The position numbers were made by a program, and so were the translations under genes. 64,000 nt of DNA from Phycisphaerae bacterium (GTDB lineage Bacteria > Planctomycetota > Phycisphaerae > UBA1845 > Fen-1342). The stretch spans positions 96,001 through 160,000 of the forward strand of contig CAXXWX010000010.1 in the NCBI GenBank assembly GCA_963675745.2, written 5' to 3'. Shown piece by piece: positions 2,067-63,071 of the stretch (its first letter is position 1; each line of letters opens with the position of its first letter). Below the pieces are notes generated by a model. The model was given only the letters and a program-made list of their open reading frames with translations, was not told the DNA's origin and searched no databases.

Positions 2067-2467
2067 ATGAAGAAGCACGCACTGCTTGTCGGAGTTGAGG
2101 AATACCGGGATTCGATGATCTCGCGGCTGCAGTTTGCGCGAGCGGATGCGCCACGCTTGCCGAGCGGCTCGAGACCCGTTGCGGGTTCGACCAGGTTCGG
2201 GTGCTGGCCGACACGAACGGTGAGAACGAGCCGGCATTAATCAACATCGTGGCCGCTTTGCGTGACACGGCCGGAGAGCTGCGGAGCGATGACCTGTTCC
2301 TGTTCTTTTTCGCCGGCCATGGCGTGGAAAAGGAGGGCCACGGCTACCTGATGGCGCGCGACAGTCTGCAGGCCTTCCCCGAGCACGGCAGCCTGTCACT
2401 GGAGCTTTTGCGCAAGACATTTGGACAGTTCGGCGCGGGTAAGCCGTACGGAGAGAAATGCCAGTAA
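2067..2467 (+). pseudogene. Caspase-like (peptidase C14) gene, frameshifted and truncated
   Basis: ATG 2067 gives MKKHALLVGVEEY...ARADA. After an apparent 1-nt loss near 2151 the next frame reads TLAERLETRCGF...FLFFFAGHG. It ends before the catalytic DxC motif. Confidence 0.75.
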
Positions 2468-2772
2468 TTCGGGCAGCAGTTGTTGCGTTCCTGGCTGAGT
2501 CCGACGGCGCTCTTGTGCTCGCCCAGCACGAGCGTCTCTTTTCCTTTCCGATGCGCGGTCAGCGGATCTGTGCAACCAAAATCGACCCGATTATGCGGGC
2601 GGTCTTCTTGCTCCCAAACCCGCGCCTCAGGGTAAATATGGCAAATGCGCTCAACGATGCTCCGACGCTGCGGATTGGACCGGCTTCCCTTCGTCAGAAC
2701 GATCCGCTTTCGGGAAATAATGGGGGGACTTCGGGGCATGTAGTGTTCGGTGTACGCAAAGAGCCCGCCCAT
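2445..2772 (-). pseudogene. Spore-photoproduct-lyase-like radical SAM protein, N-terminal fragment
   Basis: ...HRKGKETLVLG...CCPNYWHFSPYG breaks off just before the expected CxxxCxxC and abuts the caspase fragment tail to tail. Confidence 0.5.
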
Positions 2773-3340
2773 ACTCTCTTCCGCAGCCCTCATTCGCATG
2801 CCGCGTCTCCCTGGCGAGTGGAACTGGTGAACCCTAACACGCGGCTAACAAGCGGTCAATCATGTCGAGAAGGACCAGTGGCTTTCTTCACCCGCCATCG
2901 GATTCGAGGTGCCGCCATAGCATTCGGGATTCTCCCGGCAACTGGGCCGAATGCTACGTAACATCCTGTTATGCCGCCAGTAACGCCTCGGCGACGGACT
3001 GCGGCAGGCGAACGGCGCCCGCGGCAAAAAGTCCTAACCGTGTCCGGTCACTTCGATTGATCGCAAGTCTCGCCGAGCGCACGGATTGGCGAACCTGCCC
3101 GACGCCGGGCCGTGCGGCACGATGCCTGACTCCGCGCGGACCATAATCCACGCCAGGTACACTGGCGCGGCACATGGCGAAAAACCGCAATTCCTGAACT
3201 ACCGCACACACGCCGTCCCGGCATGAACCCGTCGATGGCGGCGTGCGCGACTTGGCGTTTCATTACAACGGCGATGCGGCGTCTGACTGCTCTGTGAGCC
3301 GTGGCACACAGCGAGGCAACGCACCACAAGCGATGGTAGG

Positions 3341-4264
3341 CTAGCTCCGTACCCGCCGACACAGCGCTTCGGCCAGGCGCTCCGCGGCGTTTGGACCATG
3401 GCGGAAGAACAGCGACGGCTCCACCAGCTCCAGCTCGCTGAGCCGCAGCTCGCCGTGGGCGTCGCGCAGGAAATCGACGCGCGCGTATAGCAGCTTGTCG
3501 GCGTCGTGAGGCGCAGGTGTCTGTCTATCCGGTAGCCGGCCGGCCATGGCTTCGGGCACCAGGCCGACGATTCGCCGGGCCGCGTCGAGCCCGTCGCGTG
3601 CCATCACGGCGGGCTCATCGCTCGCTCCAAAATCGTCCTGAACACGGTAATCGCCGGGCACGGGAATCTTGCGGACGGTGTGCGTGATCTCGCCGTCGAT
3701 GAAGATAACCGACAGCTCGCCAGCCGTTTCGACGCTTTCCAGGTATGGCTGGATCATCATGTCTTCATGCGCGAGCAGTCGCTTAAGGTGCGACTCGGCG
3801 GTGGCGAGGCCGGCCGGCGTGGCGTCAAATCGCAGTGTTTCGCGTGCTGTTGCGCCGATCAGCGGTTTGAGAAACGCCCGGCGCCAGCCATGCTCGGCCA
3901 ACACGGTCTCCAGATCGACCGTCGCGCCGCGCGCGAGCCAGACGGTTGGCGTCAGCGGCGCGCCCAGTGCCTCCAGATCATGCAAGTAGCTCTTGTGTGA
4001 ATTCCACCGGACGACGTCGGCCGCGTTGAACAGCCGCGTCAAGCCGCCGACGCGTGCGGCCCAGTCCGCAAACGCGTCGCGCTTCTCCTGATAGTCCCAG
4101 GTTGTGCGAATCAGGCACGCGTCAAACGCCGTCCAGTCCGCGCGCGGGTCATCCCACACGAGTTGGGCGTACTCCACGCCGCGCCGAGCCAGCGCGGCGT
4201 GCAGCGGCCGATCATCGACCTCCCAGTCGGGCAGGTTCGAGCAGGTTGCCAGCGCGATTCGCAT
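3341..4264 (-). CDS. ATP-grasp (RimK/glutathione synthetase-like) ligase
   Basis: Motifs IRTTWDY, WNSHKSYL, FLKP, QPYL, GELS, DYRVQDDFG, LYARVD, ELELVEPSLF; start taken at MRIALAT. Confidence 0.85.
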   Translation of the reverse strand: MRIALATCSNLPDWEVDDRPLHAALARRGVEYAQLVWDDPRADWTAFDACLIRTTWDYQEKRDAFADWAARVGGLTRLFNAADVVRWNSHKSYLHDLEALGAPLTPTVWLARGATVDLETVLAEHGWRRAFLKPLIGATARETLRFDATPAGLATAESHLKRLLAHEDMMIQPYLESVETAGELSVIFIDGEITHTVRKIPVPGDYRVQDDFGASDEPAVMARDGLDAARRIVGLVPEAMAGRLPDRQTPAPHDADKLLYARVDFLRDAHGELRLSELELVEPSLFFRHGPNAAERLAEALCRRVRS

Positions 4265-40816: not shown

Positions 40817-41140
40817 CTATGCGAATATCCCGTGTAGATACCACCTGTTTTCATTAAGCGCCCGGAAAATCCAGAATTGCTCGCCGGTGTCGGTTTCAAC
40901 ACGAAAATAGTCGCGACGAACATCGGAGCTACGCCACCAGGCTGTTTCAACGCGTTCGGGGCCCACCGATCGTGTGATGATGTGCTCGCGACCCTGATGA
41001 CAAAACCACGTGGGCGGACCGGCGGGCATCAAGGCGATCACGCGTATTGGAAGCGGCTTGGAAAAGAGCTTCGTCGGCCGCGCCCCTGCGGCACCCGGCC
41101 CTCTGGGATAAGGTGTTGACGTGGGTGATGGCACCATCAC
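40817..41140 (-). CDS. Detached ImuB C-terminal domain
   Basis: RPTKLF...GPERVETAWW...RDYFRVE...WIFR...WYLHGIFA; lies in a different frame from imuB with a GTGA overlap. Confidence 0.7.
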   Translation of the reverse strand: MMVPSPTSTPYPRGPGAAGARPTKLFSKPLPIRVIALMPAGPPTWFCHQGREHIITRSVGPERVETAWWRSSDVRRDYFRVETDTGEQFWIFRALNENRWYLHGIFA

Positions 41141-42612
41141 CGGTCTCCCGCTGCGGGCCGCGAAGCCGGTGGCCGGCCAGCGGTCGTAAATCGCCGGGGA
41201 TACTCCACCCGTTCGGAGGGTTGGGGACGGAATCGAAGGTGGGAGGTTGGCTTAAGGAACAGTCCGCCCACCAGCCCTCGAACGGATGGGGTACCCTCTG
41301 TGCAATGGCGGTTTTCCGGATCATCCGGCGCAGTGACCGCTGTTTTCTCGCTGATCTCGGGCGGCGTGTCGGCGGCGCCGTCTTCAGCCGAATCATCTCG
41401 AGCTTTGCAACCGGCTACCGACACCGGGACGTAATTGAACGAGAATTCGGGTTGGTGATCATCGACCAACTGTGGTCGAACAACTGCATCAGGTCCCAAC
41501 CGGTTCGCCAGTCGGTCAATCAGGCAGCCCAGATCTTCATCGGCTCGTGGATCGTGGTACTCGAAAAGGTCGCCCTGGCCGGGTTGCCATCGGGCGGTCC
41601 GGCGTGCGAGCAGTAAGAGACCGGTGATGCCGGAGCCGAGATCACTCGACTCGATCCGACCGCGTATTAACTCGTCGATGTGCTGCCAGGCGCGCGACGG
41701 GCGGGACAGATTTACCCGCAACGTAACCGGTGGCGCATGTTCGTGATAAACTACCAGCTCCAGGCACTGCACGCCCAATCCGCATCGCTGAAGCTGGTCG
41801 GCGATTTCATCGAGCATCTGCCGTGCCAGCGCGGGAAGCGGGCGCGCATCTGTGATTGGAGCTTCGAAGCTCAATCGCGTGGCCGGTAACGGTTTGTACG
41901 GCTGGGCGACAAGTGGCTCGATAGTCTCGCCGAGCGCTTGCCGCAAACGCTTGACCAACCCTTGACCAAAGCGGGCCGGCAATGATGCGCGGGGCAGATC
42001 CAACAAGCCGCCGATTGTGCGAATGCCCAGCGTAAGCAGTTTTTCGAGTGTGCCGTCATCGAGACGTAAGGCGGCCGGCGGTAACGGCGCGAGGTGGGCA
42101 CTGATCTGACCCGCCGACACAACCGTTGTCTCACTCGGGCCGGTAGTCGCCAGTGCGTACGCGGCGCCGACGGTGTCGGCGATAGCCACCCGCGCGCTGA
42201 ACCCCCGGTGTGCCAGGCCGTGGTACGCCTGATGCGCGATGTTCTCCTCTCCTCCGAAGAGCTGTTTACAGCCGGTGATATCGACCAGCACACAATCAGG
42301 CTCATAGGGCTGAACGGTCGGGCTGAAACGCAAAGCCCAGTTGGCCAACCCGCGAAGCTGTTGACGATCACGAGCGGGGTCAAACGGCAGTGCCATCAAC
42401 TGTGGCACGGTTGCCTGTGCCTGCCCCAGTGAGACGCCGGCTTCGATTCCGCCGGCACGGGCCCGCGGGCAGCGACGCGCCACCACCTGTGACTGGTTGA
42501 CCCGCTCGACAAGCACCAGCGGGCGTCGCGCGTCAGCCGGCGCTATGGCGTTGTCGCACCGCAACAGGTCGGTCGACAGGTATGGCAGATGCAGGCACAG
42601 CACCCGGCGCAT
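41137..42612 (-). CDS. imuB: ImuB, inactive Y-family DNA polymerase-like protein
   Basis: MRRVLCLHLP, RFSPTV, DITGC..LFGGE, LPPAALRL, LIDRLANRLG; directly downstream of imuA. Confidence 0.85.
   Translation of the reverse strand: MRRVLCLHLPYLSTDLLRCDNAIAPADARRPLVLVERVNQSQVVARRCPRARAGGIEAGVSLGQAQATVPQLMALPFDPARDRQQLRGLANWALRFSPTVQPYEPDCVLVDITGCKQLFGGEENIAHQAYHGLAHRGFSARVAIADTVGAAYALATTGPSETTVVSAGQISAHLAPLPPAALRLDDGTLEKLLTLGIRTIGGLLDLPRASLPARFGQGLVKRLRQALGETIEPLVAQPYKPLPATRLSFEAPITDARPLPALARQMLDEIADQLQRCGLGVQCLELVVYHEHAPPVTLRVNLSRPSRAWQHIDELIRGRIESSDLGSGITGLLLLARRTARWQPGQGDLFEYHDPRADEDLGCLIDRLANRLGPDAVVRPQLVDDHQPEFSFNYVPVSVAGCKARDDSAEDGAADTPPEISEKTAVTAPDDPENRHCTEGTPSVRGLVGGLFLKPTSHLRFRPQPSERVEYPRRFTTAGRPPASRPAAGDR
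41201..41293. repeat. Imperfect inverted repeat (arms of about 33 bp) inside the imuB 3' end
   Basis: TACTCCACCCGTTCGGAGGGTTGG pairs with CCAGCCCTCGAACGGATGGGGTA. Confidence 0.65.
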
Positions 42613-43777
42613 CGGGAAACTCCATCGCAAACGGTTCGCCGGGTATTCCTTCCCGCAGCTTGAGCACCGTTACCAACATGCGGCGCGCCTCCGCGCGGCC
42701 TTTCAGGGGATCAAACCGCAGTCGAGTGGCGGCGAACGTTTTCCCACCAACATCATTACAGCGCAACAACAAGCCCAGGCCCGCGCCGGCCTCGGCGGCC
42801 AGTTGCAGACGCCGGGAAAGCCGCATATCCAGCTTGCGAACCGTGGCGACCACGGCACCGAACGCGCGGCAGCGCAGACTCTGTTCACAGACCCACAACA
42901 CATCGGCGTGACGATGCGCGCGGATGATGAGCAAGCGCCCCAGCGGCATTCCAAGCAGTTTCGCCGCGGGCGGGTAAAAATCCTCCGCGGCATCGATGTA
43001 CATGATCCAGCGTCCGGTTGGCGTGGCCTGGATCGCGGTGTGCAGTACCAGCGAGTGTACCGCTACCCCGGCACTACCAGCGACGAACTCGTGGACCGCT
43101 CCGCGGACAAACCCACCACCAAGGACGGCGTCGAGCGGTGGAAAACCGCTGGGGCAACGCTCGGTTGACGGACGATAGTGTTCCCTCAAACGGTCAATCC
43201 GTCGCTGTAGTTCGGCAAGCTGTGAATCACCCGGCTTGGTGATCCTGTGCGTAAGCCCGCTGGCGGCTGACGGGGCGGTGGGTCGAAAACCCGTAACGAC
43301 CTGAGTCCCTGCAACGGCCGATGTCTTTGTCGGACGTGGGACGCCGGTACGCGCACGAACGCGCGGCGGCTTTGGATCGCACTGCTCAAGAGCAGTGGCA
43401 CACGTCTCAGTAGCGGCCTGCGCCTCGCAGGCCGTTGGCGTTAAGCAGGCTTTCCCATGTTCGACGGCCGGCGGGGCGCCGGCCGCTACATTTGTGGGAC
43501 CGACTACATTTGTGTGGCCGACTGCATTTGTGGGACCGGCTACACTTGTGGGACCGGCTTCCAGCCGGTCAGGTCGGTCAGGTCGGTCAGGTCGGTCAGG
43601 TTGGTCAGGTTGGTCAGGTCGGTCCAGTCGGTCAGGCCGGCCAACGAGAATGTCGGTCGCTGCATTACCTTGCGCCGTCCGCGATTTCCGCGCCGGATTA
43701 TTGACGATGCGCGAATCGCTCAAATTGTCAGCGCACCAGAGGCGCTTGGCCGATTGTCGGCACACAGACGACGACAT
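42533..43777 (-). CDS. imuA: ImuA (RecA-like) with a long repeat-derived N-terminal extension
   Basis: SGFPPLDAVLGGG..RGAVHE, FYPPA, LWVCEQSLRC, RRLQLAAEAG. Start uncertain. Confidence 0.8.
   Translation of the reverse strand: MSSSVCRQSAKRLWCADNLSDSRIVNNPARKSRTAQGNAATDILVGRPDRLDRPDQPDQPDRPDRPDRPDRLEAGPTSVAGPTNAVGHTNVVGPTNVAAGAPPAVEHGKACLTPTACEAQAATETCATALEQCDPKPPRVRARTGVPRPTKTSAVAGTQVVTGFRPTAPSAASGLTHRITKPGDSQLAELQRRIDRLREHYRPSTERCPSGFPPLDAVLGGGFVRGAVHEFVAGSAGVAVHSLVLHTAIQATPTGRWIMYIDAAEDFYPPAAKLLGMPLGRLLIIRAHRHADVLWVCEQSLRCRAFGAVVATVRKLDMRLSRRLQLAAEAGAGLGLLLRCNDVGGKTFAATRLRFDPLKGRAEARRMLVTVLKLREGIPGEPFAMEFPDAPGAVPASAIPVDRPVAVRQRHSAG
43410..43640. repeat. REP-like palindrome pair plus 18-bp and 9-bp tandem repeats
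   Basis: GTAGCGGCCTGCGCCTCGCAGGCCGT at 43410-43435 with an inverted copy at 43464-43489; four units resembling CTACATTTGTGGGACCGA; about eight GGTCAGGTC units. Confidence 0.8.
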
Positions 43778-44009: not shown

Positions 44010-44447
44010 TCAGTGATGATCCTCATGCCCCACGCCGGCCGGAGCAACCACGTAAATGTAGCGCATGATCTCGGTGCCCGTGTTGAACACGTTGTGCCGC
44101 GTTTGCGGCGGATTGTACGCGTATTGTCCGGCGGCAAGCGGGCGCCGTGGGCCGTCGCCGCACGCCACTTCGCCGGCACCGGCCAGGCAGATAATCATCT
44201 CTTCGTAGTTCTCGGTGCTGTGCCAGCCGCAATCCTTGCCCGGCTCCAGAACCACGAATCCGGATCGCATCCCGACGGTGTCCGTCTTGCCCAGCAGACG
44301 GGCCGGTTCCTGCGTGTCCGGCACAGACCGGACAAAGCCCTCGCGCTGAGGAGTCTGGCTCATTTGTGGTCCTCTTTCCGTACAGCCCAAAGCCGCCACA
44401 ATCGGCAGCACGCCCACGATACACAACAAGCACTTCCCACGGTTCAT
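44010..44447 (-). CDS. Cupin-domain lipoprotein-like protein
   Basis: Hydrophobic leader ending in ALGC; WHST...EE...G.G...PP.T.H cupin motifs; HEDHH tail. Confidence 0.8.
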   Translation of the reverse strand: MNRGKCLLCIVGVLPIVAALGCTERGPQMSQTPQREGFVRSVPDTQEPARLLGKTDTVGMRSGFVVLEPGKDCGWHSTENYEEMIICLAGAGEVACGDGPRRPLAAGQYAYNPPQTRHNVFNTGTEIMRYIYVVAPAGVGHEDHH

Positions 44448-44503
44448 CTGCCAGCCTTCCCGCACTGCCCGGTCTTTCCGCACCCAGCGGGCGCGGCTTT
44501 CGT

Positions 44504-44923
44504 TCAGCGCAAAGCCTCTCCTGTTGTTGCCATACTCACCGATGCGTGGAGTACGCCACGCTGTTTGCCCATTTCGTCGGCCAGCCGCTGGATGCGGGCG
44601 CGCTTGCCGCGCACCATGATCATCTCGGCACACATTTCGTGCGACAGATGCACATGCGTCGAAGCGAGGATGTGCTCGGCGTGCTGGTGCTGGATATCAA
44701 CCAGACGATCGAGCAGTTCACGCGCATGGTGGTCATACACCAGCGTGATCGTCGCCACGACGTCCTGGCGCGCATCCGCCCACTCCTGCTGGACGACGCG
44801 CTGTCGGATGAGGTCCCGCACGAATTCCGAACGGTTGGTGTACCGGCTGCCGCGGGCCAGTCGCTCGAGTTGCTGCGCCAAGCTCGCTTCCAACGAGATG
44901 CTGATACGCACCAGATCGGACAT
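44504..44923 (-). CDS. nikR: Nickel-responsive regulator
   Basis: RISISL ribbon-helix-helix, YTNRSEFVRDLIR, YDHH, QH, HVHL...C.E. Confidence 0.96.
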   Translation of the reverse strand: MSDLVRISISLEASLAQQLERLARGSRYTNRSEFVRDLIRQRVVQQEWADARQDVVATITLVYDHHARELLDRLVDIQHQHAEHILASTHVHLSHEMCAEMIMVRGKRARIQRLADEMGKQRGVLHASVSMATTGEALR

Positions 44924-45037
44924 CCACCTATCCTCACACGATCACCCGCAACCTGGTCGCGGCGCAGCCCGATGACCAGGCGTCTAATACCACCCACGCG
45001 GCAAGCACACATCGCATCCGCCGAACGGCGCCGCTGC

Positions 45038-45083
45038 TTGACTAGAGCCGGGCATAATATTACGATTTTGAAGTACGTATTAC
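45038..45083 (+). promoter_or_regulatory. Sigma70 promoter overlapped by a putative NikR operator
   Basis: TTGACT-N17-TACGAT at 45038-45066; ATATTAC-N13-GTATTAC at 45057-45083. Confidence 0.7.
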
Positions 45084-45223
45084 CAGGGAATGGTCCGCCG
45101 TATTCCGGATCTGCGCCGCGCACGCCCCGGGCGGGGCTGTTCGCGCACCCTTCAGGGTCGTGTTTGACCCTGTCGTGGTGGTCCGGCTTATGAGAAACCC
45201 CACAATCGAAAAGGTGACGCCGC

Positions 45224-46189
45224 ATGCACATCCCCGATGGCTTCCTGGATGGTAAGACGGCCGTGGCGACCGGGGCCCTGGCTGTGACGGGGTTGGCGGT
45301 TGCACTGCGGCACGCCCGGGTACACCTGCCGCCGCGCAGCGTACCGCTGCTGGGTCTGGCGGCGGCTTTTGTGTTTTCCGCTCAGATGATCAACTTCCCT
45401 GTGGGCGGTGGCACCTCGGGCCACCTGATCGGAGGCGTGCTGGTGGGCGCGCTGCTGGGGCCGAGTGCCGCCGTCATCGTCATCTCGGCGGTACTGATCG
45501 TGCAGTGTCTGATGTTCGCGGATGGCGGCATCTCGGCGTTGGGCGCCAACATCTTCAACATGGGGCTGATCGGCGGCGTCGGCGGGTGGGCGATCTATAA
45601 TGGCGTGAGCCGCACGGTCAAGGGGCTTTTCGGCTGCGTACTGGCCGCCGCCTTCGCCGCCTGGTGCAGCACGGTGCTGGCCTCTGTTGCCTGTGCCGGT
45701 GAACTGGCTGCTTCTCACACTGTTGGCTGGTCGGTGGTTCTGCCGGCAATGGCTGGTACTCATATGTTCATCGGCATCGGCGAGGGGCTGATCACGGCGC
45801 TGGTGCTGGCGGCCATCGCGCGCACGCGCCCGGAGTTGCTCCGGCCGGCCGCCGCGCCGGAGCTGAAGCCGGCTTACGGTACACTGGTGGTTTATGGTGC
45901 GCTGCTCGCATTCGGGCTGGCGTTGTTCGCCTCGCCGTTTGCTTCGCAATCGCCGGACGGCTTTGACAAGACGGCGGAAGTGCTCGGCTTCAGCGACCGG
46001 GCCGCCGAGTCGGTCGTCCCCGCGCCGATTCCTGATTACGAGATGCCCTGGATTCACTGGAGTGTGCTCAGCACGGCCGTGGCGGGGGCCGTGGGAACGG
46101 CGGTTATGTTCGTGCTGGCGTGGTTGCTGGCGCGCATGCTGGTGCCGGTGACCAACCGCGGAGATGCCACCACGCCGCAAGCGCTGTAA
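45224..46189 (+). CDS. nikMN: ECF nickel/cobalt transporter substrate component, NikM-NikN fusion
   Basis: MHIPDGFL N-terminus, GTSGHL, FADGG..ALGAN and a PDGLE-like domain (ASQSPDGFD). Confidence 0.9.
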   Translation: MHIPDGFLDGKTAVATGALAVTGLAVALRHARVHLPPRSVPLLGLAAAFVFSAQMINFPVGGGTSGHLIGGVLVGALLGPSAAVIVISAVLIVQCLMFADGGISALGANIFNMGLIGGVGGWAIYNGVSRTVKGLFGCVLAAAFAAWCSTVLASVACAGELAASHTVGWSVVLPAMAGTHMFIGIGEGLITALVLAAIARTRPELLRPAAAPELKPAYGTLVVYGALLAFGLALFASPFASQSPDGFDKTAEVLGFSDRAAESVVPAPIPDYEMPWIHWSVLSTAVAGAVGTAVMFVLAWLLARMLVPVTNRGDATTPQAL

Positions 46190-46200
46190 TAGAGCACCGG

Positions 46201-46812
46201 ATGCGACACGACTTCCTGGACCGCTACAGCCGGCTGGATTCTTCCATCCATCGCCTGCACGCTGGGGTGAAGCTCGCGGCGGCCCTGGCGGTGGTTGTGA
46301 CGGCGCTGCTGGTGCCACCCTCTCGGCCAATCTGCTTGGGCGTCGTGGCTGTCTTTCTGCTCGCCGTTGCGGGATTCAGTCGGATTCCGTGGGTCTTCCT
46401 GCTCCGCCGGTTGCTCCTGCTGGAACCCTTCGTGCTGGGTGTGGCGCTGCTGGCGCTGTTCCAGCCGGACGGATGGCGGCTGTTCCTCTTCCTGGTCGCC
46501 AAGTGCACCCTCTGCCTGCTGGCCATGATCCTGTTGTCCAACACGACTCCGTTTTCGGATCTGTTGCGCGTGTTGAAGGCTGCGCGAATGCCGGCGTTGC
46601 TGGTGACGACGTTGTCGCTTATGTACCGGTACCTGTTCGTGCTGGTGGACGAAGCCCAGCGCATGAAGCGGGCGCGGCTGAGCCGCACGTTCTCACCCCG
46701 CCAAAGCCGGAACTGGCGCACGCTTGCCACCGTCATTAGCCAGTTGTTCATTCGCAGCAGCGAGCGCGCCGAACGAATCTACGCCGCCATGTGCGCCCGG
46801 GGGTGGCGGTGA
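46201..46812 (+). CDS. nikQ: ECF transporter T component
   Basis: SIHRL...KL, MYRYLFVL..E..RM..AR..R, RAERIYAAMCARG. Confidence 0.9.
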   Translation: MRHDFLDRYSRLDSSIHRLHAGVKLAAALAVVVTALLVPPSRPICLGVVAVFLLAVAGFSRIPWVFLLRRLLLLEPFVLGVALLALFQPDGWRLFLFLVAKCTLCLLAMILLSNTTPFSDLLRVLKAARMPALLVTTLSLMYRYLFVLVDEAQRMKRARLSRTFSPRQSRNWRTLATVISQLFIRSSERAERIYAAMCARGWR

Positions 46813-47558
46813 GCGCGGCCATCGAAATCAGAGACCTGCACTTCCGCTACGGTGAAGGCACGGCCGCGCTGCGCGGCGTCAGCTTCTCTGTCGCCGAAGG
46901 CGAGTGTGTTGGGCTGATCGGTCCCAACGGCGCCGGCAAGAGCACGTTGCTACTGCACCTGAACGGTTTGCTGCCCGAATCCTGGACGGGCGTGAGCGCC
47001 GTGCTGGTGGGGGGGCGCGCGCTCACCAAGGAGAGCCTGCCCGAGGTTCGTCGCCAGGTGGGGCTGCTCTTCCAGGATCCCAACGATCAGCTCTTTTGCC
47101 CCACGGTATTCGAGGACGTCGCGTTTGGTCCTCAACAACTTGGCCTTGGCCGGGCCGAGATTCGTGAGCGCGTCGGGCGAGCGCTCGACCAGGCCGGGCT
47201 GCCGGGGTTTGAGGAGCGTGCTCCCCACCACCTGAGTGTCGGCGAGAAGCGTCGCGTTTGCCTGGCGGGTCTGTTGGCTTGCGATCCGTCGATTCTGGTG
47301 CTGGACGAACCCACGAGCAGCCTCGATCCGAAGGGCCGCCGGGATATCAAGGAGCTGCTGCGGCGGATTCCCATCACCAAGCTCATCGCCACCCACGATC
47401 TGGAGTTTGTGGTTGAGTTGTGCTCACGCGTGATCGTGCTGGACGGGGGCACCGTCGTGGCTGAAGGGCCGACGGTCGAGCTGCTCTCGAATGAGGAGCT
47501 GATGCGGCGCCACAGCCTGGAATGCCCCCACGTCCTGCGTCATCTGCACCCGCACTGA
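46809..47558 (+). CDS. nikO: ECF transporter ATPase
   Basis: GPNGAGKS, FQDPNDQLF, LSVGEKRR, LDEP. Confidence 0.92.
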   Translation: MSAAIEIRDLHFRYGEGTAALRGVSFSVAEGECVGLIGPNGAGKSTLLLHLNGLLPESWTGVSAVLVGGRALTKESLPEVRRQVGLLFQDPNDQLFCPTVFEDVAFGPQQLGLGRAEIRERVGRALDQAGLPGFEERAPHHLSVGEKRRVCLAGLLACDPSILVLDEPTSSLDPKGRRDIKELLRRIPITKLIATHDLEFVVELCSRVIVLDGGTVVAEGPTVELLSNEELMRRHSLECPHVLRHLHPH

Positions 47559-47604
47559 AGCGAACACGTGACCCAAGTTCCGGTGAGCTTGGTCTCCGGT
47601 TGCC

Positions 47605-48360
47605 CTATTCCCTTACGTGATTGAGACGTTGCTGGAATTCCTCGTACGCGACCGGCTCCACCGTGATCAGTCCGGGCACGCGATCAAAGAGTGCGTCCTG
47701 GACCATGGCCAGCATCGCCATGCGATAGCGCTCAGCGTCGGCGGCGCTCACCGAATCCGGATCATGATCGAAAGCCAGCTCGATCTTCCACAAACTGTCC
47801 ATGGCGTCATGACCGATCAGCAGGTGCTTGCGATACACGACACGGACGGCGGCTCGCGCCGGCGGGTAGGCAATGTAGTAGTGGTATTCACGCCGCGGCG
47901 CCGTGATCGAATCGTCGATGAAATACTGGCTGCGCTCAGGGTCCGCGCGGCGGCTACAGCCGAGCACGAACGCGATCACATCACTGACCGTATGATCACG
48001 GCTGCTGATCAACAGAAAACCGCCACGCTCCGGCGGCGCGTCGCCCTCAGAAAGTGCATCAACGACTTTCCCGGCGATGCGAAAGCCGCCGGCGCCGCAC
48101 AGGCACACATGCCCGAGCTGGGCACAGACGTCGTCGAACTCAACCGCTACCGTTTCCACGTTTTCAGGATAGCTCCCCGCGAGCACGCCGTGGTCGTAGT
48201 GGAACGTGATCGGCGGCACGGTACTGACATAGGCGTGTCGCTCGTGCCAGCGGGTGGCAAGCGCCGGCCGCGGCGTGTGGCAGCCGGCCAGGCAGATTGC
48301 CGCCATGACGACCACGCCGGTGCAAGCTGTCTCCATTGCTCTTGTGATGTGGATTGGCAC
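47605..48360 (-). CDS. FmdE-like lipoprotein
   Basis: Lipobox LAGC; LGHVCLCGAGGFR resembles the FmdE HGHxCxG motif. Confidence 0.5.
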   Translation of the reverse strand: MPIHITRAMETACTGVVVMAAICLAGCHTPRPALATRWHERHAYVSTVPPITFHYDHGVLAGSYPENVETVAVEFDDVCAQLGHVCLCGAGGFRIAGKVVDALSEGDAPPERGGFLLISSRDHTVSDVIAFVLGCSRRADPERSQYFIDDSITAPRREYHYYIAYPPARAAVRVVYRKHLLIGHDAMDSLWKIELAFDHDPDSVSAADAERYRMAMLAMVQDALFDRVPGLITVEPVAYEEFQQRLNHVRE

Positions 48361-48553
48361 GCATTCACCTCCTGTCGCGGCCTGTGGCCGGCCGCTGGGG
48401 TCCCGTGTGGTGGATCATGGCTACGATAATGCCGCCAACACGAACTCGTCAAAGGGGGGCGAGTGGCATTGCGAGCACTGCCACGCGGCGCGTGCCAACA
48501 TGTCATTGTGCGGAGGTGTGTTACAATGTGCGCACGCGCTCAAGGAGGTCATC

Positions 48554-50074
48554 ATGTCCCGCGCACGATCCCGCAACGTATTACGAACCGGCAAGCGCCC
48601 CTCTGTTCACCGGGTATTCTGGCTGTTGCCAGCTCTGGCCATGCTCTGGTGGTCGAGCTGTGTGTCGCTGCCGCCGGAGCTGATCGACCAGGCCGAGGAA
48701 GAGCTGCGCCGCGAGCTCGAAGAGATGAACGCCGAACCCGAGCCGTTTATCCCGCCCGCGCCGACAGAAATCACGTTCCACGCGGTCTACCAGAACGTCA
48801 TCGACGAAGATCGGCTCGGCGACACGATCGGGCCCTGCGCCATGTCAACCGACGGGCGCAAGATCGCCTTTCGCAATCGCGGCGGCATCGGCGACGAGCT
48901 CAACCGCGTCTATCTGATGGACACCGACGGCACCGGGCTCGAGGGCTTTGACGTGCATGGCGACCTCGGCCCGCTCTCATACGTCGCGATCAGCGGCGAC
49001 GGCACGCGCGCCTATTTCGCCACCTCGTTCAACCAGACTATTCTCAAGCTCGAAAGCGGAAACATCTCAACATACGATCTTACCGGCGATGATGGTCCCG
49101 ACGGAATCGACACGCTGCGAACCACCACCACCGGCGACTATGTGTACTTCCACGGTAATCGGGACAGCAACGTCTGGCGGCTGCGCCACGACGGCACCGG
49201 CTTGCAGCGCGTCGTCGACGTGGACGATCCCGCCATGCCGCCCAATGGCGCTGCTGCGTTCGACATTTCGGCCGACGCATCGGTGCTGGTCTTCAGCCGC
49301 TCAATGGGAGGCGAGATCTACAAGCTCGCCGGCGGCGGGATCACGCAACTCACCAACGAAGGCGGCTATGGCACGCCGCGGATCACGCCCGACGGCAACA
49401 CCGTCTACTACCGCGCATCGGCCAGCGCCGACCAGCCGGGCTGGTGGTTGATGAGCGCGTCCGGCGGGGCGGCAACATGGATGTCAAACTGGCCCAGCGG
49501 CCTGAATCTCGCCGCCAGTGAGGACGGGGCCACTCTCTTCGTGGGTGACACGCGCGCCAAGCCGGACAACACTGCTTTCGCACTGTTTCCCTCGACCGGT
49601 CTCGCGGACTTCTCCTACTCGATGAGTAGCGACGGGGCATTGATCTGTTTCCGCCCGGACTTCGGCAAGATCTACGTCGGGCACATCGCAGCGCCCGACG
49701 TCGTGCTCGACGTGCCGGTGGTGGAGTCGATCGGGTTTGATCCGTCCCGCGTGCCGCGCGGCGACCCGAATGCGCAGGTCGTCGCTGTTGTGAAGGCGTC
49801 GGCCGAGCACGGCCTGGAGCCCGCGATGCTGGTCAGGGTCGCGGAGCTGCTCGACGGTCGCATAGCGCGCGAACACGCGGCCCCGATCGTGTTTCCAGAC
49901 CTGTACGACCACAGTTATTCGCCGGACGGTGTGGCTGATGACGGGGTTTTCAGCGGCATCGGGAGTATCGCGGACGGCATCGATGCATACGACTCGGTGA
50001 CCGTGCGCATCTCGGCATATGACACGATCGGCAACATAGTCGTTGCCGACGCCGTGTTGCCGATCGGGGGTTAA
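48554..50074 (+). CDS. TolB/PD40-like beta-propeller exported protein
   Basis: AAGGAGG RBS, hydrophobic leader with Cys, and repeated S.DG..(I/V).F blades. Confidence 0.7.
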   Translation: MSRARSRNVLRTGKRPSVHRVFWLLPALAMLWWSSCVSLPPELIDQAEEELRRELEEMNAEPEPFIPPAPTEITFHAVYQNVIDEDRLGDTIGPCAMSTDGRKIAFRNRGGIGDELNRVYLMDTDGTGLEGFDVHGDLGPLSYVAISGDGTRAYFATSFNQTILKLESGNISTYDLTGDDGPDGIDTLRTTTTGDYVYFHGNRDSNVWRLRHDGTGLQRVVDVDDPAMPPNGAAAFDISADASVLVFSRSMGGEIYKLAGGGITQLTNEGGYGTPRITPDGNTVYYRASASADQPGWWLMSASGGAATWMSNWPSGLNLAASEDGATLFVGDTRAKPDNTAFALFPSTGLADFSYSMSSDGALICFRPDFGKIYVGHIAAPDVVLDVPVVESIGFDPSRVPRGDPNAQVVAVVKASAEHGLEPAMLVRVAELLDGRIAREHAAPIVFPDLYDHSYSPDGVADDGVFSGIGSIADGIDAYDSVTVRISAYDTIGNIVVADAVLPIGG

Positions 50075-50172: not shown

Positions 50173-51291
50173 TTACGGCTCGGTCGCGTAGTCGTGGCTG
50201 TCGGTGGCGTCGGTGAACGGTGTGGCCACGCGCACATCCGCGTCCTGGGTCCACGACATTATCCCGAACTTCAGGTTGGTCGCGTTGTAGCCGAGCATGT
50301 TCAGCGCGGTGGTCGCCAGGCCGCCGGTGTGACCGGTGTAGCAGTAGACGACGATCGGCTGATCCGCGGGGATCTTCTGGAGGTTTTCAACCAGGGCGAT
50401 CGTCTTCCACGGAATGTTGATCGCGCCCGGAATGTGGCCCAGCGCGTAATGCTCGGCCGAACGCACGCTGATGATGAACGGATCGTTAGTGGCGTCGCCA
50501 TCATTCAACAGGGCGAACAGATCGGCGGCCGTGGTCGTGGGCGGCGTGCCCGCATCCAGGTACGCCTTGCCGGCGGCCCGGACAATCTCCATGTCGTCGG
50601 TCGAGGTGGAGACATCCAGCGTCGGCAGATCGTTTGTCGCCGAGCCCGGGTTGTCCGTGGTCTCGACGTCGTAGTCGTGCGAGTCGACAGTGTCGTCGAA
50701 CGCCGCGGCAACGCGGATATCCGTGTCGCGCGTCCAGGCGCCCATGCCGAACTTCATGTTGACAGCGTCATAGCCCAGCGCGCCCAGGAAGCATGTCGCG
50801 ACGGCGCCCGTATGCCCGGTGTAGCAATACACCACCACTTGCCGGTCGGTCGGCACATCGGCGAGAACGCCTTCATCCGCGACCGTGCGCCAGGGAATGT
50901 TCACCGCGCCCGGCACGTGCCCCAATGCATAATGCTCGGCCGACCGAACGCTGATCACGTACGGCCTGTTCAACTCGTTGGCGTCATTCAACGTCTCAAA
51001 GACCGTCTGTGCCGCGATCGCCCCTGCCGGATCGCCGGCAAAATACGTCGCCAGCGCCGTGCGCACGACCTCAAACTGGTCGATGGTCGTGGTGTTCGGA
51101 TCGACCGTATTCGGATCGACCGTGTTCGGGTCAACCGTGTTCGGATCGACCGTGTTCGGGTCAACCGTATTCGGATCAACCGTATTCGGATCGACGTTGT
51201 TTGGATCGTCCACCGGCACCGTTGGGCAGCCACCCAACATGCACAGGCCGATGCCTGTGAGGATCAGCAGCGTTAGATAGTTCTTCTTCAT
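50173..51291 (-). CDS. Tandem rhodanese-domain lipoprotein
   Basis: Lipobox LGGC, (DPNTV)n linker, and two domains each with SVRS.EHY..GH.PGA.NIPW and an active-site loop CYTGHTG. Confidence 0.9.
   Translation of the reverse strand: MKKNYLTLLILTGIGLCMLGGCPTVPVDDPNNVDPNTVDPNTVDPNTVDPNTVDPNTVDPNTVDPNTTTIDQFEVVRTALATYFAGDPAGAIAAQTVFETLNDANELNRPYVISVRSAEHYALGHVPGAVNIPWRTVADEGVLADVPTDRQVVVYCYTGHTGAVATCFLGALGYDAVNMKFGMGAWTRDTDIRVAAAFDDTVDSHDYDVETTDNPGSATNDLPTLDVSTSTDDMEIVRAAGKAYLDAGTPPTTTAADLFALLNDGDATNDPFIISVRSAEHYALGHIPGAINIPWKTIALVENLQKIPADQPIVVYCYTGHTGGLATTALNMLGYNATNLKFGIMSWTQDADVRVATPFTDATDSHDYATEP
51088..51208 (-). repeat. 15-bp coding tandem repeat (DPNTV, about 8 units)
   Basis: Repeated (T/G)TTCGG(A/G)TC(G/A)ACCGT-type units. 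Confidence 0.9.
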
Positions 51292-51341: not shown

Positions 51342-52775
51342 CTAGTTCATCTCCGGCGGCTCATTGACGACAACAGATTCGTTGGCGGTAATCTCCGCCT
51401 CGACCATCAGTCCTTCGTCCACCAGCTCGGCCAGGTATGCCGAGGTCAGGAACAGATCCAAATCGCCGTGGCACTCGGCGCATGATGCCGTCTGCGGCGT
51501 GCTGCGCTGAATGTTGTGCGGCGTCGCCGGCCGCCAAGTGGGCTGGTCGGCGAAGTTCGCCAAATCGATGTCCCAGTCCTCAAACGTATCGGGCGCAATT
51601 GGAATGTGCCGCAGCAGGACATACGTGTACGGTTGTGTGGCCGTCACGTTTGGATTGCGGCCAATGCGGAAGTCCATCTCCGACGGCAGTTGCAGGCCCT
51701 GCGTTTCCAGCTCCACGTGGCACTGATAGCAGTTCTTGTATGACATCGAGTGGCAGACCTGGCAGGCCACCGTTCCGGCGTGGCTGCTGTGGTATATCGA
51801 GCTCGACGTTGTCGACGCGGCGTCTGCGTGGCAATCCGGGCACTTCGGGCCGGCATCATTCGCATAGCGGTGGGCCGGCGTGGTGCCGTCGCCGTGCAGC
51901 TCGATGTCGTCGTGGCAAGCCATGCAGTTCATGCCGCTGCGCCAGTGGACGTCTTCAGCGATACCGGCGTTCTTTCCGAGGAACTCGTCACCGACGCGAC
52001 TGCCGTGACAGGACGTGCAGTTGTCGGTGAGCGACGGCGTTTTGTAAAAAGTGTGCCCGCGCGTCAGACCGCCGCGCACGGAACTTGGCCGGCTGATATG
52101 GCATTGGCCGCAAGTGCCGTGGCAGCTCTCGCAGCGCGCGGCAAACATCGCCGCGTACTGGGCGTCGTCGGCACCGGCGTCGCTACGGTTGGCGAACGCG
52201 GTGAAGTAGCCCATCTGTGTCGCGTGCAGACTGTTCTGCACCTTAGCCGCAATCTCGGCGTGGCAGCCTTTGCAGGCCGGCGCGTCGCCGGCCGAAGGGT
52301 CAATCACCATGCCGACGTGGGCCGCGGCCTTTTCGTTCACCCCCTCCGCGCCTCCGTGGCACGTGCGGCAGCCGATCGCGCCGTGAGTGGTGCTGGCAAA
52401 GCCACTGGCAATCAGAACACGCTCCCATACCTCCAACTGAGGTACAGAGCCACCTCACCCCTCGCCCGTGTCTTCGACCTGTGCCTCCTCCTCGCGAGCG
52501 ACGGCCTTCAGCAACGTCTCATCGGTGTGACAGCCGATGCAGTCGCGCGCCAATGACGTCGGGTCGCCAGGCTGGTTGGGATCAGCCGGTGTATTGGGGT
52601 CAGCCGGCGTATTGGGGTCCGTTGGCGTGTTGGGGTCGTTTGGATCGCCGGGCGTGGTTGGTGTCGTCGGAGGGCAGCCGACGATCAGCAGCGTCAGCAT
52701 CAGCAGCGCCAGCATCGGCGGCGCGCCGGCACGTGGACAGCGTCGTAGCGGATAGGGTGGTTTCGGCGGGTGCAT
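51342..52775 (-). CDS. Predicted selenocysteine-containing 11-heme c-type cytochrome lipoprotein (Sec at codon 107, UGA 52457-52455)
   Basis: GGAGG RBS, lipobox IVGC, one CxxCH, then in-frame GEG-UGA-GGSVPQLEVWERV and ten more CxxCH; SECIS-like hairpin directly after the UGA. Confidence 0.82.
52421..52450 (-). promoter_or_regulatory. Bacterial SECIS-like hairpin
   Basis: mRNA GCUCUGUACCUC-AGUUG-GAGGUAU(G)GGAGC: 12-bp stem with one bulge, 16 nt between UGA and loop, G then U at loop positions 2-3. Confidence 0.78.
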
Positions 52776-53118
52776 CGTGAACCTCCAAGGACGGAACGCA
52801 CAGAGATCGGTCATTACCGGTTCAGCGACAGATGACGGTACAGGAATGTAGACCGTCGGCGCCATTCTAGCGAGCGAAACGACAGCGACAAGGTTAGAAA
52901 CGGGAGCGGATGGAGGCCGGGAATCAGCAGCGAGAAATCGAACGTCGCCGTGCGCGCCATGGGGCGTGCGGATCGTCGTTTCCATCGGCAAACGTGTCTT
53001 CTAATCAGTATCATGAGTGTACGATATCGACGCTCGAATCAGCACCGCAAGCGACCGGCATGCTGCCACCCAACGCCGCATGCTTTCGTGCAGGACGCTC
53101 CGCCAGTATCCTCTCAAC

Positions 53119-61319: not shown

Positions 61320-61598
61320 ATGACGACGGGAACGCCGACGGCCGGATGCATGCCGGTCACCAACGTGGGTGCCACGATACCTTTTGACGCGATTACCACG
61401 CCGGGCGCTTATGTGTGCGACTGGAGCGGTCACCTGTTGCGTGTTCCTGAAGAAGGCGTGTCGCCGAGCTGCACACCGATGATCAACATCATCGGCAACG
61501 CGCCACTGACCGTGACCAAGATCAGCGACAACCCGTTTCTGACAATCAGCAAAGCGAAGCTGATCGCGTCGAATTACCACCTCAACGTTGATTTCTAG
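61320..61598 (+). CDS. Small hypothetical protein
   Basis: GGAG RBS, 92 aa, coding-like codon usage, followed by a terminator. Confidence 0.7.
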   Translation: MTTGTPTAGCMPVTNVGATIPFDAITTPGAYVCDWSGHLLRVPEEGVSPSCTPMINIIGNAPLTVTKISDNPFLTISKAKLIASNYHLNVDF

Positions 61599-61635
61599 AC
61601 ACAGTCCTTCGCCACAGGCTCCCCAGCTGTGGAGT

Positions 61636-61671
61636 GGCCGGACGCAGGTTGGATCGCGTCCGGCTCTTTTT
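61636..61671 (+). terminator. Rho-independent terminator
   Basis: GCCGGACGC-loop-GCGTCCGGC followed by TCTTTTT. Confidence 0.75.
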
Positions 61672-61925
61672 ATGCGCGCCGAGCCCGTCTCGGCGACGCC
61701 GAACGAGCCGGGGGCCGGCGCCTTGGCGGTTCACGTACGACGGCCTCGGCCGGCTGATCGAGGCCTTGACGCCGCGCCGGTGTCCGCTGAGTGTCCGTTT
61801 TTGGGAGTCCAAAACAGTAAAAACCGTGTGAGAGTAGTAAACCACGGAGACTCGCCAAATCCCGATAGCCACGCGATGTAAGCCGTAAGTGGCGCTCCAG
61901 GAACAACTTAGCAACACGGGCCCGA

Positions 61926-61944
61926 TCGAATCCCGCCCACTCCG
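61926..61944 (+). other. Isolated tRNA 3'-end fragment (Ser-like), att-site remnant
   Basis: TCGAATCCCGCCCACTCCG is a T-loop plus 3' acceptor strand, with no 5' half upstream. Confidence 0.55.
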
Positions 61945-62160
61945 ATTACGTTTTGGGAACGCCAACCGCAGCGCGAAATGCCCGCACCGGGCATGACTCG
62001 CCGGCGTGATTCCGAGCTTGCCTCGCGCCAACGATGCTCCGTCGATCTGGTGCCCAAGGGGGTTCAATTCCATGGCACGCCGTCGGATCGCGAAGATCGT
62101 GTACAATTGGCACACGTCCGCGTCGGCGTGGAACGCCACGGCGACGGTGCCGTGGGACCC

Positions 62161-63071
62161 GAACGCCGGCTGGGCCATGGCCTGCAGCCGTTTGTTGGCG
62201 CCGATGCCGAACGTGTACGTCAGTCGGTTTTTCTCGCAGATTTTGTACATCGATGGCACGCCGAAGCCGCTGTCGCCGCGAACGTGAATCGCAAGGTCGC
62301 CGCGGGCGGCGTGCAGACGCTCGACCACGAATTCCAGGTCATCGTCGGCACCGTGAGCGGCGTGCACACTGCCCGGCCGCAGGGTGGCGTAGAACACGTG
62401 CTGCGTGGTCGGCTCGCTGATCACGATCGGGAAGTACTGGTGTTGCTCGTAGTAGCCGTGGAACAACGCCAATTGCTGCTGCCCGTGCGCCGGATCGTCG
62501 GTGGCGTCGAGATCGAGCGTGAGGCGATCGGGCAGTTGGCCTTCGTTCTTCTCGCGCAGCCGCTCGATCCCGGTCGCGACCAGGAAGTCGAGCGTTTGCC
62601 ACAGCGTGTCGATCGTGACGGCGTTCTCGAAACGCGATAGCGTGGGCTGGCTGGCGAGCGGATCGTCTTCGGGCAATCGATCGGCGACGATCTTGAAGAT
62701 CGGATCATCACGGAGCGTGTCGTGATCATTGCAGTCTTCGTAGTCGGCCAGGATTCCGTAGAGCCGCTGCCGCAGCATCTCGAGTTGCGTGTGCCGCGGC
62801 TCATGGCGATCGTCACGTAACCCCGCCGCCAGCCGCTGCGTAAACCGAAGCCGCTGATCCAACTGGCGAACCGGCAACAGCCCGGCGTCCGACGAGATTT
62901 GGCCGACATGACGCTGGACAACCAACTTGCGATCGGCGAAAAACGGCAACGACAACTGAGCATCACTGTGTTCAAACACCGGCGGCCTCCGTGCACGGTT
63001 CAACTCGTTCGGGCAAAACAAGTTAAACCACACGAAGGCCGCTCTTTCAACTCAACCGTGAATAATCCGGG
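62161..63071 (-). mobile_element. IS1380-family element, 3'-truncated (transposase from GTG 62979)
   Basis: SSDAGLL, GILADYEDCNDHDTLRDDP, LASQPTLSRFEN, LDLDATDD.HG.Q, VRGDSGF; left end CCCGGATTATTCAC at 63071; similarity lost below about 62160. Confidence 0.88.

Follow-up and report, generated by a model that had tools for sequence, protein, structure and literature searches.

A predicted selenocysteine-containing undecaheme cytochrome c lipoprotein with a probable rhodanese partner in a Phycisphaerae bacterium

Background

MccSep (ExtKL), encoded by GSU2937-2936 of Geobacter sulfurreducens and covered by NCBIfam model NF040886, carries a selenocysteine (Sec) beside a heme that reduces or cleaves polysulfide, and selenite is a substrate too, according to the accessible part of the paper describing it (PMC13510729). 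The same part gives it as a soluble periplasmic tetramer with 5 hemes, with U325 in a C-terminal Ig-like domain and a separate heme-ligating Cys239, and its reference list names ExtH, a rhodanese-like lipoprotein of the ext series. Within the literature searched, MccSep is the only Sec-heme enzyme described experimentally. The cytochrome-type selenoprotein entries in the accessible part of PMC13188914 are ExtKL, GSU2204, and an octaheme tetrathionate reductase (OTR) family protein. The GSU2204 family (NF041027), also a CXXCH selenoprotein in Table 1 of that source, is described there as an MtrB/PioB-type beta-barrel; the OTR-family (TIGR04315) entry is a GenBank-annotated Sec form, WP_331457571.1.

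OTR itself, from Shewanella oneidensis (1sp3, TIGR04315), has eight hemes and a Cys-bearing insertion before heme II. Catalysis takes place at heme II, in a pocket lined by residues that follow heme IV. Heme II is ligated by Lys56 (PMC3769277).

We analyzed a 64,000-nucleotide stretch of a Phycisphaerae genome (hereafter the window), in which a preliminary description had proposed an undecaheme selenoprotein hidden behind 2 annotated genes. Like MccSep, the predicted product is an exported multiheme cytochrome c in which a UGA, followed on its 3' side by a SECIS element, encodes a single Sec; its gene is split by annotation, and Sec and Cys variants exist. In contrast to MccSep, it has 11 hemes, places U107 between hemes 1 and 2, has no extra Cys in the mature protein, and carries a lipoprotein leader. 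With OTR it shares fold and heme order, but it has three extra hemes (1, 2, and 10), its family is without the Cys-bearing insertion, and its Sec lies in an N-terminal loop that does not belong to the OTR-like region. It is probably like MccSep in its action without being a member of that family, and OTR-like in fold without being an OTR. MccSep appears to be the best functional model, and the query probably works in a similar way on an unrelated, OTR-like scaffold.

One reading frame through an internal TGA

Translation of the minus strand from 52775 to 51342 gave 477 aa; the only internal TGA is codon 107, in the context EDTGEG-U-GGSVPQLEVWERV. The frame has 11 CxxCH motifs, 1 N-terminal and 10 C-terminal to the TGA (Table 1). 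Apart from Sec107, the only cysteines outside these motifs are Cys13 and Cys34, both in the leader. The pieces called under code 11 are 52455..52991 and 51342..52436, of which the second starts with TTG. The view that these 2 pieces share one frame and encode one protein was borne out. The accompanying claim that the downstream piece has only a TTG start held in part: the TTG does sit inside the hairpin loop, but it is not the sole possible start, and the database call for this piece (P0002) starts further in, missing one heme. The downstream piece was rightly described as leaderless; further, the inspection that found GGAGG ahead of the ATG found no Shine-Dalgarno-like stretch 5' of the TTG. 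One membrane-anchored protein underlies both apparent genes. A promoter and terminator scan gave signal no better than chance.

The leader, the heme motifs, and a cytochrome c assembly gene in the host, which also has more than 20 other multiheme ORFs, suggest export, attachment through a lipid anchor, and maturation to a cytochrome c with 11 hemes. The Pro/Thr/Asp-rich tether that follows the leader is common to other proteins of the host genome (tblastn).

Table 1. Features of the cytochrome locus (window coordinates)
Feature	Coordinates	Strand	Basis or remark
Undecaheme cytochrome c lipoprotein gene, 477 aa, predicted Sec107	51342..52775	minus	Translation, homolog columns
TGA codon of predicted Sec107, in frame, context G-E-G-U-G-G	52455..52457	minus	Translation, homolog comparison
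Shine-Dalgarno-like GGAGG, 6 nt 5' of ATG	52782..52786	minus	Sequence inspection
Signal peptide, lipobox-like IVG-C34	52674..52775	minus	Read by eye; similar leaders in most homolog loci
Pro/Thr/Asp-rich tether	52557..52673	minus	tblastn matches on host C27, C15, C6
Heme 1 motif CIGCH (C79-H83), before TGA	52527..52541	minus	Invariant in 13/13
Putative bacterial SECIS hairpin	52421..52450	minus	Loop AGUUG 52438-52434, conserved G 52437
Decaheme core, hemes 2-11 (hemes 3-11 OTR-like)	51342..52436	minus	Piece that gene callers give alone
Heme 4 motif CESCH (C215-H219), aligned to OTR Lys-ligated heme II	52119..52133	minus	Candidate active-site heme, inferred
Arg260	51996..51998	minus	Conservation across family forms
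Tandem-rhodanese lipoprotein of 372 aa with two CYTGHTG sites	50173..51291	minus	50 nt downstream of cytochrome

The TGA column across homologs

Homologous loci were taken from GTDB genomes, where 6 of 9 loci were true homologs, from metagenomes, where 8 of 9 were, and from whole-genome searches, which were positive in 3 of 301 genomes of the host class and in 6 of 201 and 4 of 10 genomes of two other phyla. After removal of duplicates and of loci not reaching the Sec column, 22 loci including the window were compared; related genomes among them are not independent samples. The column holds TGA in 19 of the 22 and Cys (TGT/TGC) in 3; TAA and TAG do not occur there, and the frame is the same in every locus, so that the retention of TGA or Cys at one column and in one frame, on which the preliminary description had staked its case, is what the homologs display. 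The two states stand side by side in one pair of loci, GECUGG in L036 vs GECCGG in L037. An in-frame CxxCH lies 24-33 residues before the column in 20 of 21 homolog loci; the exception, L044 (G514:C48), has a TAA two codons ahead of the TGA with leader and heme 1 otherwise intact and in frame, and this TAA is an error or marks a pseudogene.

A search of 1.84 billion proteins with a profile running from heme 1 through the Sec column to heme 2 had 142 matches. Cys stands at the column in 38 of these; 36 extend across it but have no Cys there (3 of them misassigned by the script), 47 begin just past it, 15 stop exactly there, and 6 are others. The downstream piece has 1167 homologs, and the N-terminal part is absent from 118 of the top 120. 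In GenBank, such a split is exemplified by MBT4500765.1 (77 aa, stopping at GEG) and MBT4500764.1 (346 aa); public annotation calls the two pieces "hypothetical protein" or else mislabels the family's proteins as sulfurtransferase.

Relatives with neither Sec nor Cys, which the preliminary description did not mention, any more than it did the rhodanese partner or the OTR-like fold, have W, H, S, Y, or other residues at the column. Trp is found there in P0203, P0211, P0227, P0231, and P0240, which is consistent with a TGA-to-TGG change. In a quick tree of 52 rows (after removal by hand of 6 partial or misaligned rows, and of 2 rows in which the anchor motif was missing and 15 of the 25 fused ones), the state without Sec or Cys requires at least 3 changes, and Sec/Cys is therefore dispensable in part of the family. 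One such protein, P0236, retains a fused tandem rhodanese. No relatives of the cytochrome were found in viral contigs.

SECIS hairpin and selenocysteine machinery

A hairpin begins 4 nt 3' of the UGA. Its 5-nt loop, AGUUG, lies at a distance of 16 nt from that codon and has G at position 2. The bacterial SECIS model, as given in the accessible part of PMC13188914, has a 3-9 nt loop, an upper stem of 4-16 bp, a G in the first two loop positions, a spacing of 16-37 nt, and a minimum free energy of at most -7.5. With its loop of 5 nt, upper stem of 6-7 bp, spacing of 16 nt, and -16 kcal/mol, the hairpin fits that model in loop length, stem, G position, spacing, and energy, as had been proposed. 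For the 37-nt segment, the folding energy of -16 kcal/mol corresponds to z -3.1, and 1 of 200 shuffles was as good; longer windows gave z -1.4, 0.1, and -1.3, none significant.

The loop G (nt 21) is a wobble base, standing third in an apical-loop codon for Gln, Pro, or Glu, and is present in 19/19 TGA loci vs 0/3 Cys loci, against a background frequency of G at the third position in TGA-type genes of 0.10-0.76 for Pro and a higher 0.38-1.00 for Gln. In an alignment of 12 loci, pairing in the upper stem of 7 bp is 86.9%, and 4 of the 7 pairs show double changes; slid controls were 33-56% paired, and the covariation score was matched by 2 of 500 shuffles, scores that relatedness inflates. Weak hairpins occur at L002 (-5.1) and L005 (-3.3). 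On the evidence of these alignments, the hairpin is under selection.

The host has selA, selB, tRNA-Sec (selC), and selD, the last containing a TGA of its own, and the expectation that sel genes accompany the TGA was upheld. Kinship with L001/G215 places the host in the Phycisphaerae. A selA match above the cut-off was present in each of the 14 distinct TGA-type genomes, host included (G301 and G215 being the same), and selA was not found in either of 2 Cys-type genomes. As selA occurs in 46 of 121 genomes of the host class and in 15 of 16 sampled in the host order, only the co-occurrence across phyla is informative. The host selB is frameshifted in the assembly (G000:C7 about 47995; L011:1308-1311). 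Contigs of run X1 omit two letters at this position, so an assembly error is likely, though not proven; runs X2 and X3 gave no such row, and no contig bridging the frameshift was among those listed. An alternative genetic code was rejected, with TGA ending 372 of 769 long ORFs and tRNA-Trp(CCA) present. UGA107 is almost certainly decoded as selenocysteine, to judge from the column, the putative SECIS downstream of it, and the host machinery.

Fold, heme ligands, and family identity

Pfam recognized only generic heme-motif families in the protein, and NCBIfam 20.0 held no fitting model for it or for any of 120 members. The preliminary description had set the protein apart from ExtKL, and rightly so: NF040886 had no match to the query at E<=0.01 and matched 0/120 members at E<=0.001, the locus is not among the NF040886 matches in the host genome, and 11 hemes stand against 5. 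NF041027 matched neither the query nor the 120 members; TIGR04315 did not match the query and matched 11 of the 120 members weakly (best E 2.4e-6). Membership in ExtKL, OTR, ExtM/N/O, and DmsE was ruled out on weak scores. Atlas matches were unnamed cytochrome clusters, mostly from Chloroflexota and Thermodesulfobacteriota.

An AlphaFold2 model of residues 74-477 had pLDDT 91.7 and pTM 0.88. The Sec loop, proposed to be flexible, is indeed the least confident region of the model, but at pLDDT 73-78 it is not disordered. Foldseek retrieved nothing from the PDB for the model at E<=0.001, and a second look gave no match with Z>=5. In a structural alignment against 48,161 chains, OTR 1sp3 ranked top (Z 9.6, 265 aligned, rmsd 4.3) and was covered along its whole chain, the runner-up chain reaching Z 4.6; it also came first in a search of the sequence profile against the PDB (E 2.4e-5). 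MccSep was not among the structural-search matches, and the libraries may not contain it. The modeled core resembles octaheme tetrathionate reductase plus three extra hemes, a modest match.

In the alignment, hemes 3-9 correspond to OTR hemes I-VII, heme 4 falling on heme II, and heme 11 would, in our reading of the motif order, be OTR heme VIII. Ten non-motif histidines are conserved (131, 153, 184, 241, 277, 294, 329, 332, 390, and 420); as ten serve eleven hemes, one heme is left open or otherwise ligated. To go by its alignment with OTR heme II, this is probably heme 4. The partly conserved M210 (74%) or M282 (82%) could provide the missing ligand; no conserved Lys was found between R197 and C215, where the alignment is loose. 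Relatives without Cys at the Sec column retain every His ligand. Arg197 and Arg389 are invariant and Arg260 near-invariant. Arg260 is present in 12/12 of the Sec-type and 25/25 of the long fused proteins; among 17 Cys-type proteins its frequency is 71%, and among 21 no-Cys proteins it is 38%. It is frequently lost along with Sec/Cys.

We did not find the family in the 2026 inventory, which covers 119 families of selenoproteins, the part of the BSepDB supplement available to us (PMC13326102) has no "cytochrome" row, and no description was found in a literature search with most subscription journals outside its coverage. It is an unlisted, widespread family of multiheme selenoproteins, and the gene in the window is very probably decoded with Sec.

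Probable rhodanese partner and gene neighborhood

The tandem-rhodanese lipoprotein encoded just downstream is a probable sulfur-carrier partner of the cytochrome. A rhodanese match was identified at 20 of 25 cytochrome loci (L024 and L026 possibly being one organism); of the five without, L002, L005, and L030 end at or just past the gene, and L036 and L037 have none in the available DNA. Further, 73 of the 76 homologs longer than 637 aa carry a fused Pfam rhodanese, the others having cytochrome b (2) or more hemes (1). All 76 begin just after the Sec column, from which an upstream TGA is inferred for the rhodanese-fused members. A complex prediction for the Cys-type L041 cytochrome with its tandem rhodanese scored 0.00 and carries no weight either way.

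A regulator of ArsR-rhodanese type, possibly a sulfane-sulfur sensor, lies directly upstream in L039 (238-981) and L042 (209-928) and, by eye, in L038. At L002, L004, and L005 the cytochrome follows an MtrA-like decaheme cytochrome and/or a probable porin. P0122, P0125, P0252, P0250, P0126, and P0241 are fusions with cytochrome b, NapC/NirT-like, mono-heme, or extra multiheme modules, which would link them directly to the membrane electron chain. As a separate observation, L027 has two cytochrome paralogs (1-960 and 2310-3425) on either side of one rhodanese gene, and G385 has two cytochrome copies.

Discussion

The tight rhodanese linkage and the fusions point to sulfane sulfur, and we lean toward an extracytoplasmic sulfane-sulfur or polysulfide oxidoreductase, by analogy with MccSep, working most plausibly as a reductase. 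In such a scheme, the rhodanese partner would take polysulfide sulfur as a Cys persulfide, and the Sec selenolate on its Gly-rich loop would attack the S-S bond near the single heme without a His sixth ligand, probably heme 4; the remaining hemes would supply the electrons, and HS- would be released. The retention of costly Sec across phyla and the loss of Arg260 with it suggest catalysis. We know of no natural Sec-ligated heme, and the proposal that Sec107, or Cys in Se-free hosts, is the sixth or a swinging ligand of the heme without distal His is a tentative one that we hold doubtful.

The family adds a widespread selenoprotein type that we did not find in the 119-family inventory or in NCBIfam 20.0, and would be a second Sec-heme architecture, on a scaffold different from that of MccSep. 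As Sec, Cys, and no-chalcogen versions occur naturally, the role of Sec is directly testable. Should the enzyme be a polysulfide reductase, it would mark sulfur respiration in Phycisphaerae, Chloroflexota, Desulfobacterota, and candidate phyla. A search of the host genome (91% complete) found neither dsrA nor MccSep. If Sec is indeed a heme ligand, the protein would have a natural His/Sec-ligated c-type heme fed persulfide by a dedicated rhodanese, and would be a second, independently evolved Sec-heme enzyme of sulfur respiration, built on the OTR scaffold and spread over many uncultured anaerobic phyla.

A selenoprotein acting on another oxyanion (tetrathionate, thiosulfate, selenite/tellurite, or nitrite), with the rhodanese as an accessory, is unlikely. 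Such a substrate would suit the OTR-like fold and the anion-binding potential of Arg197, Arg389, and Arg260, and the accessible parts of the sources have MccSep reducing selenite too and OTR-type enzymes being promiscuous; however, the close rhodanese linkage and the fusion favor sulfane sulfur, and the family is without the OTR insertion that holds a free Cys before heme II.

We consider it quite improbable that the protein works oxidatively (on sulfide or persulfide, or in detoxification) or mainly as an electron relay in which Sec, as a heme ligand, serves for tuning or redox sensing. Which way electrons flow is not readable from sequence. The complete set of His ligands in no-Cys relatives, the MtrA-like cytochrome and probable porin ahead of L002, L004, and L005, and the cytochrome b or NapC-like fusions would all accord with such a role, whereas the argument for catalysis from Sec and Arg260 speaks against it.

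That the TGA is a true stop (two proteins, a pseudogene, or a sequencing error) or encodes Trp or another residue is very improbable, since the 2 database genes, the Trp in some relatives, and the nearby TAA of L044 are outweighed by a frame and column conserved in 19 loci with Cys counterparts, the SECIS-specific wobble G, the co-occurrence of selA, the use of TGA as an ordinary stop genome-wide, and a downstream piece without leader or ribosome-binding site.

Wider genomic context

Near the locus, the window encodes a cupin, NikR, and a CbiM/Q/O-type Ni/Co transporter (44013-48360), together with an uncharacterized exported protein (47605-48360). A large lipoprotein-like ORF on the plus strand (48254-50074) is convergent with the rhodanese gene and has no Pfam match and a weak TolB-propeller resemblance. 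On the minus strand, we identified an ImuA/ImuB-like pair with RecA-like and IMS domains (41137-43777), the IMS ORF seemingly continuing in another frame (40817-41140), and an IS1380-type transposase (61582-63033) whose match ends at 258/435 and which is probably broken. Elsewhere in the host genome, large multiheme ORFs include G000:C26:165465-170879 (46 CxxCH), C6:156945-159818 (23), and C26:790894-794130 (20).
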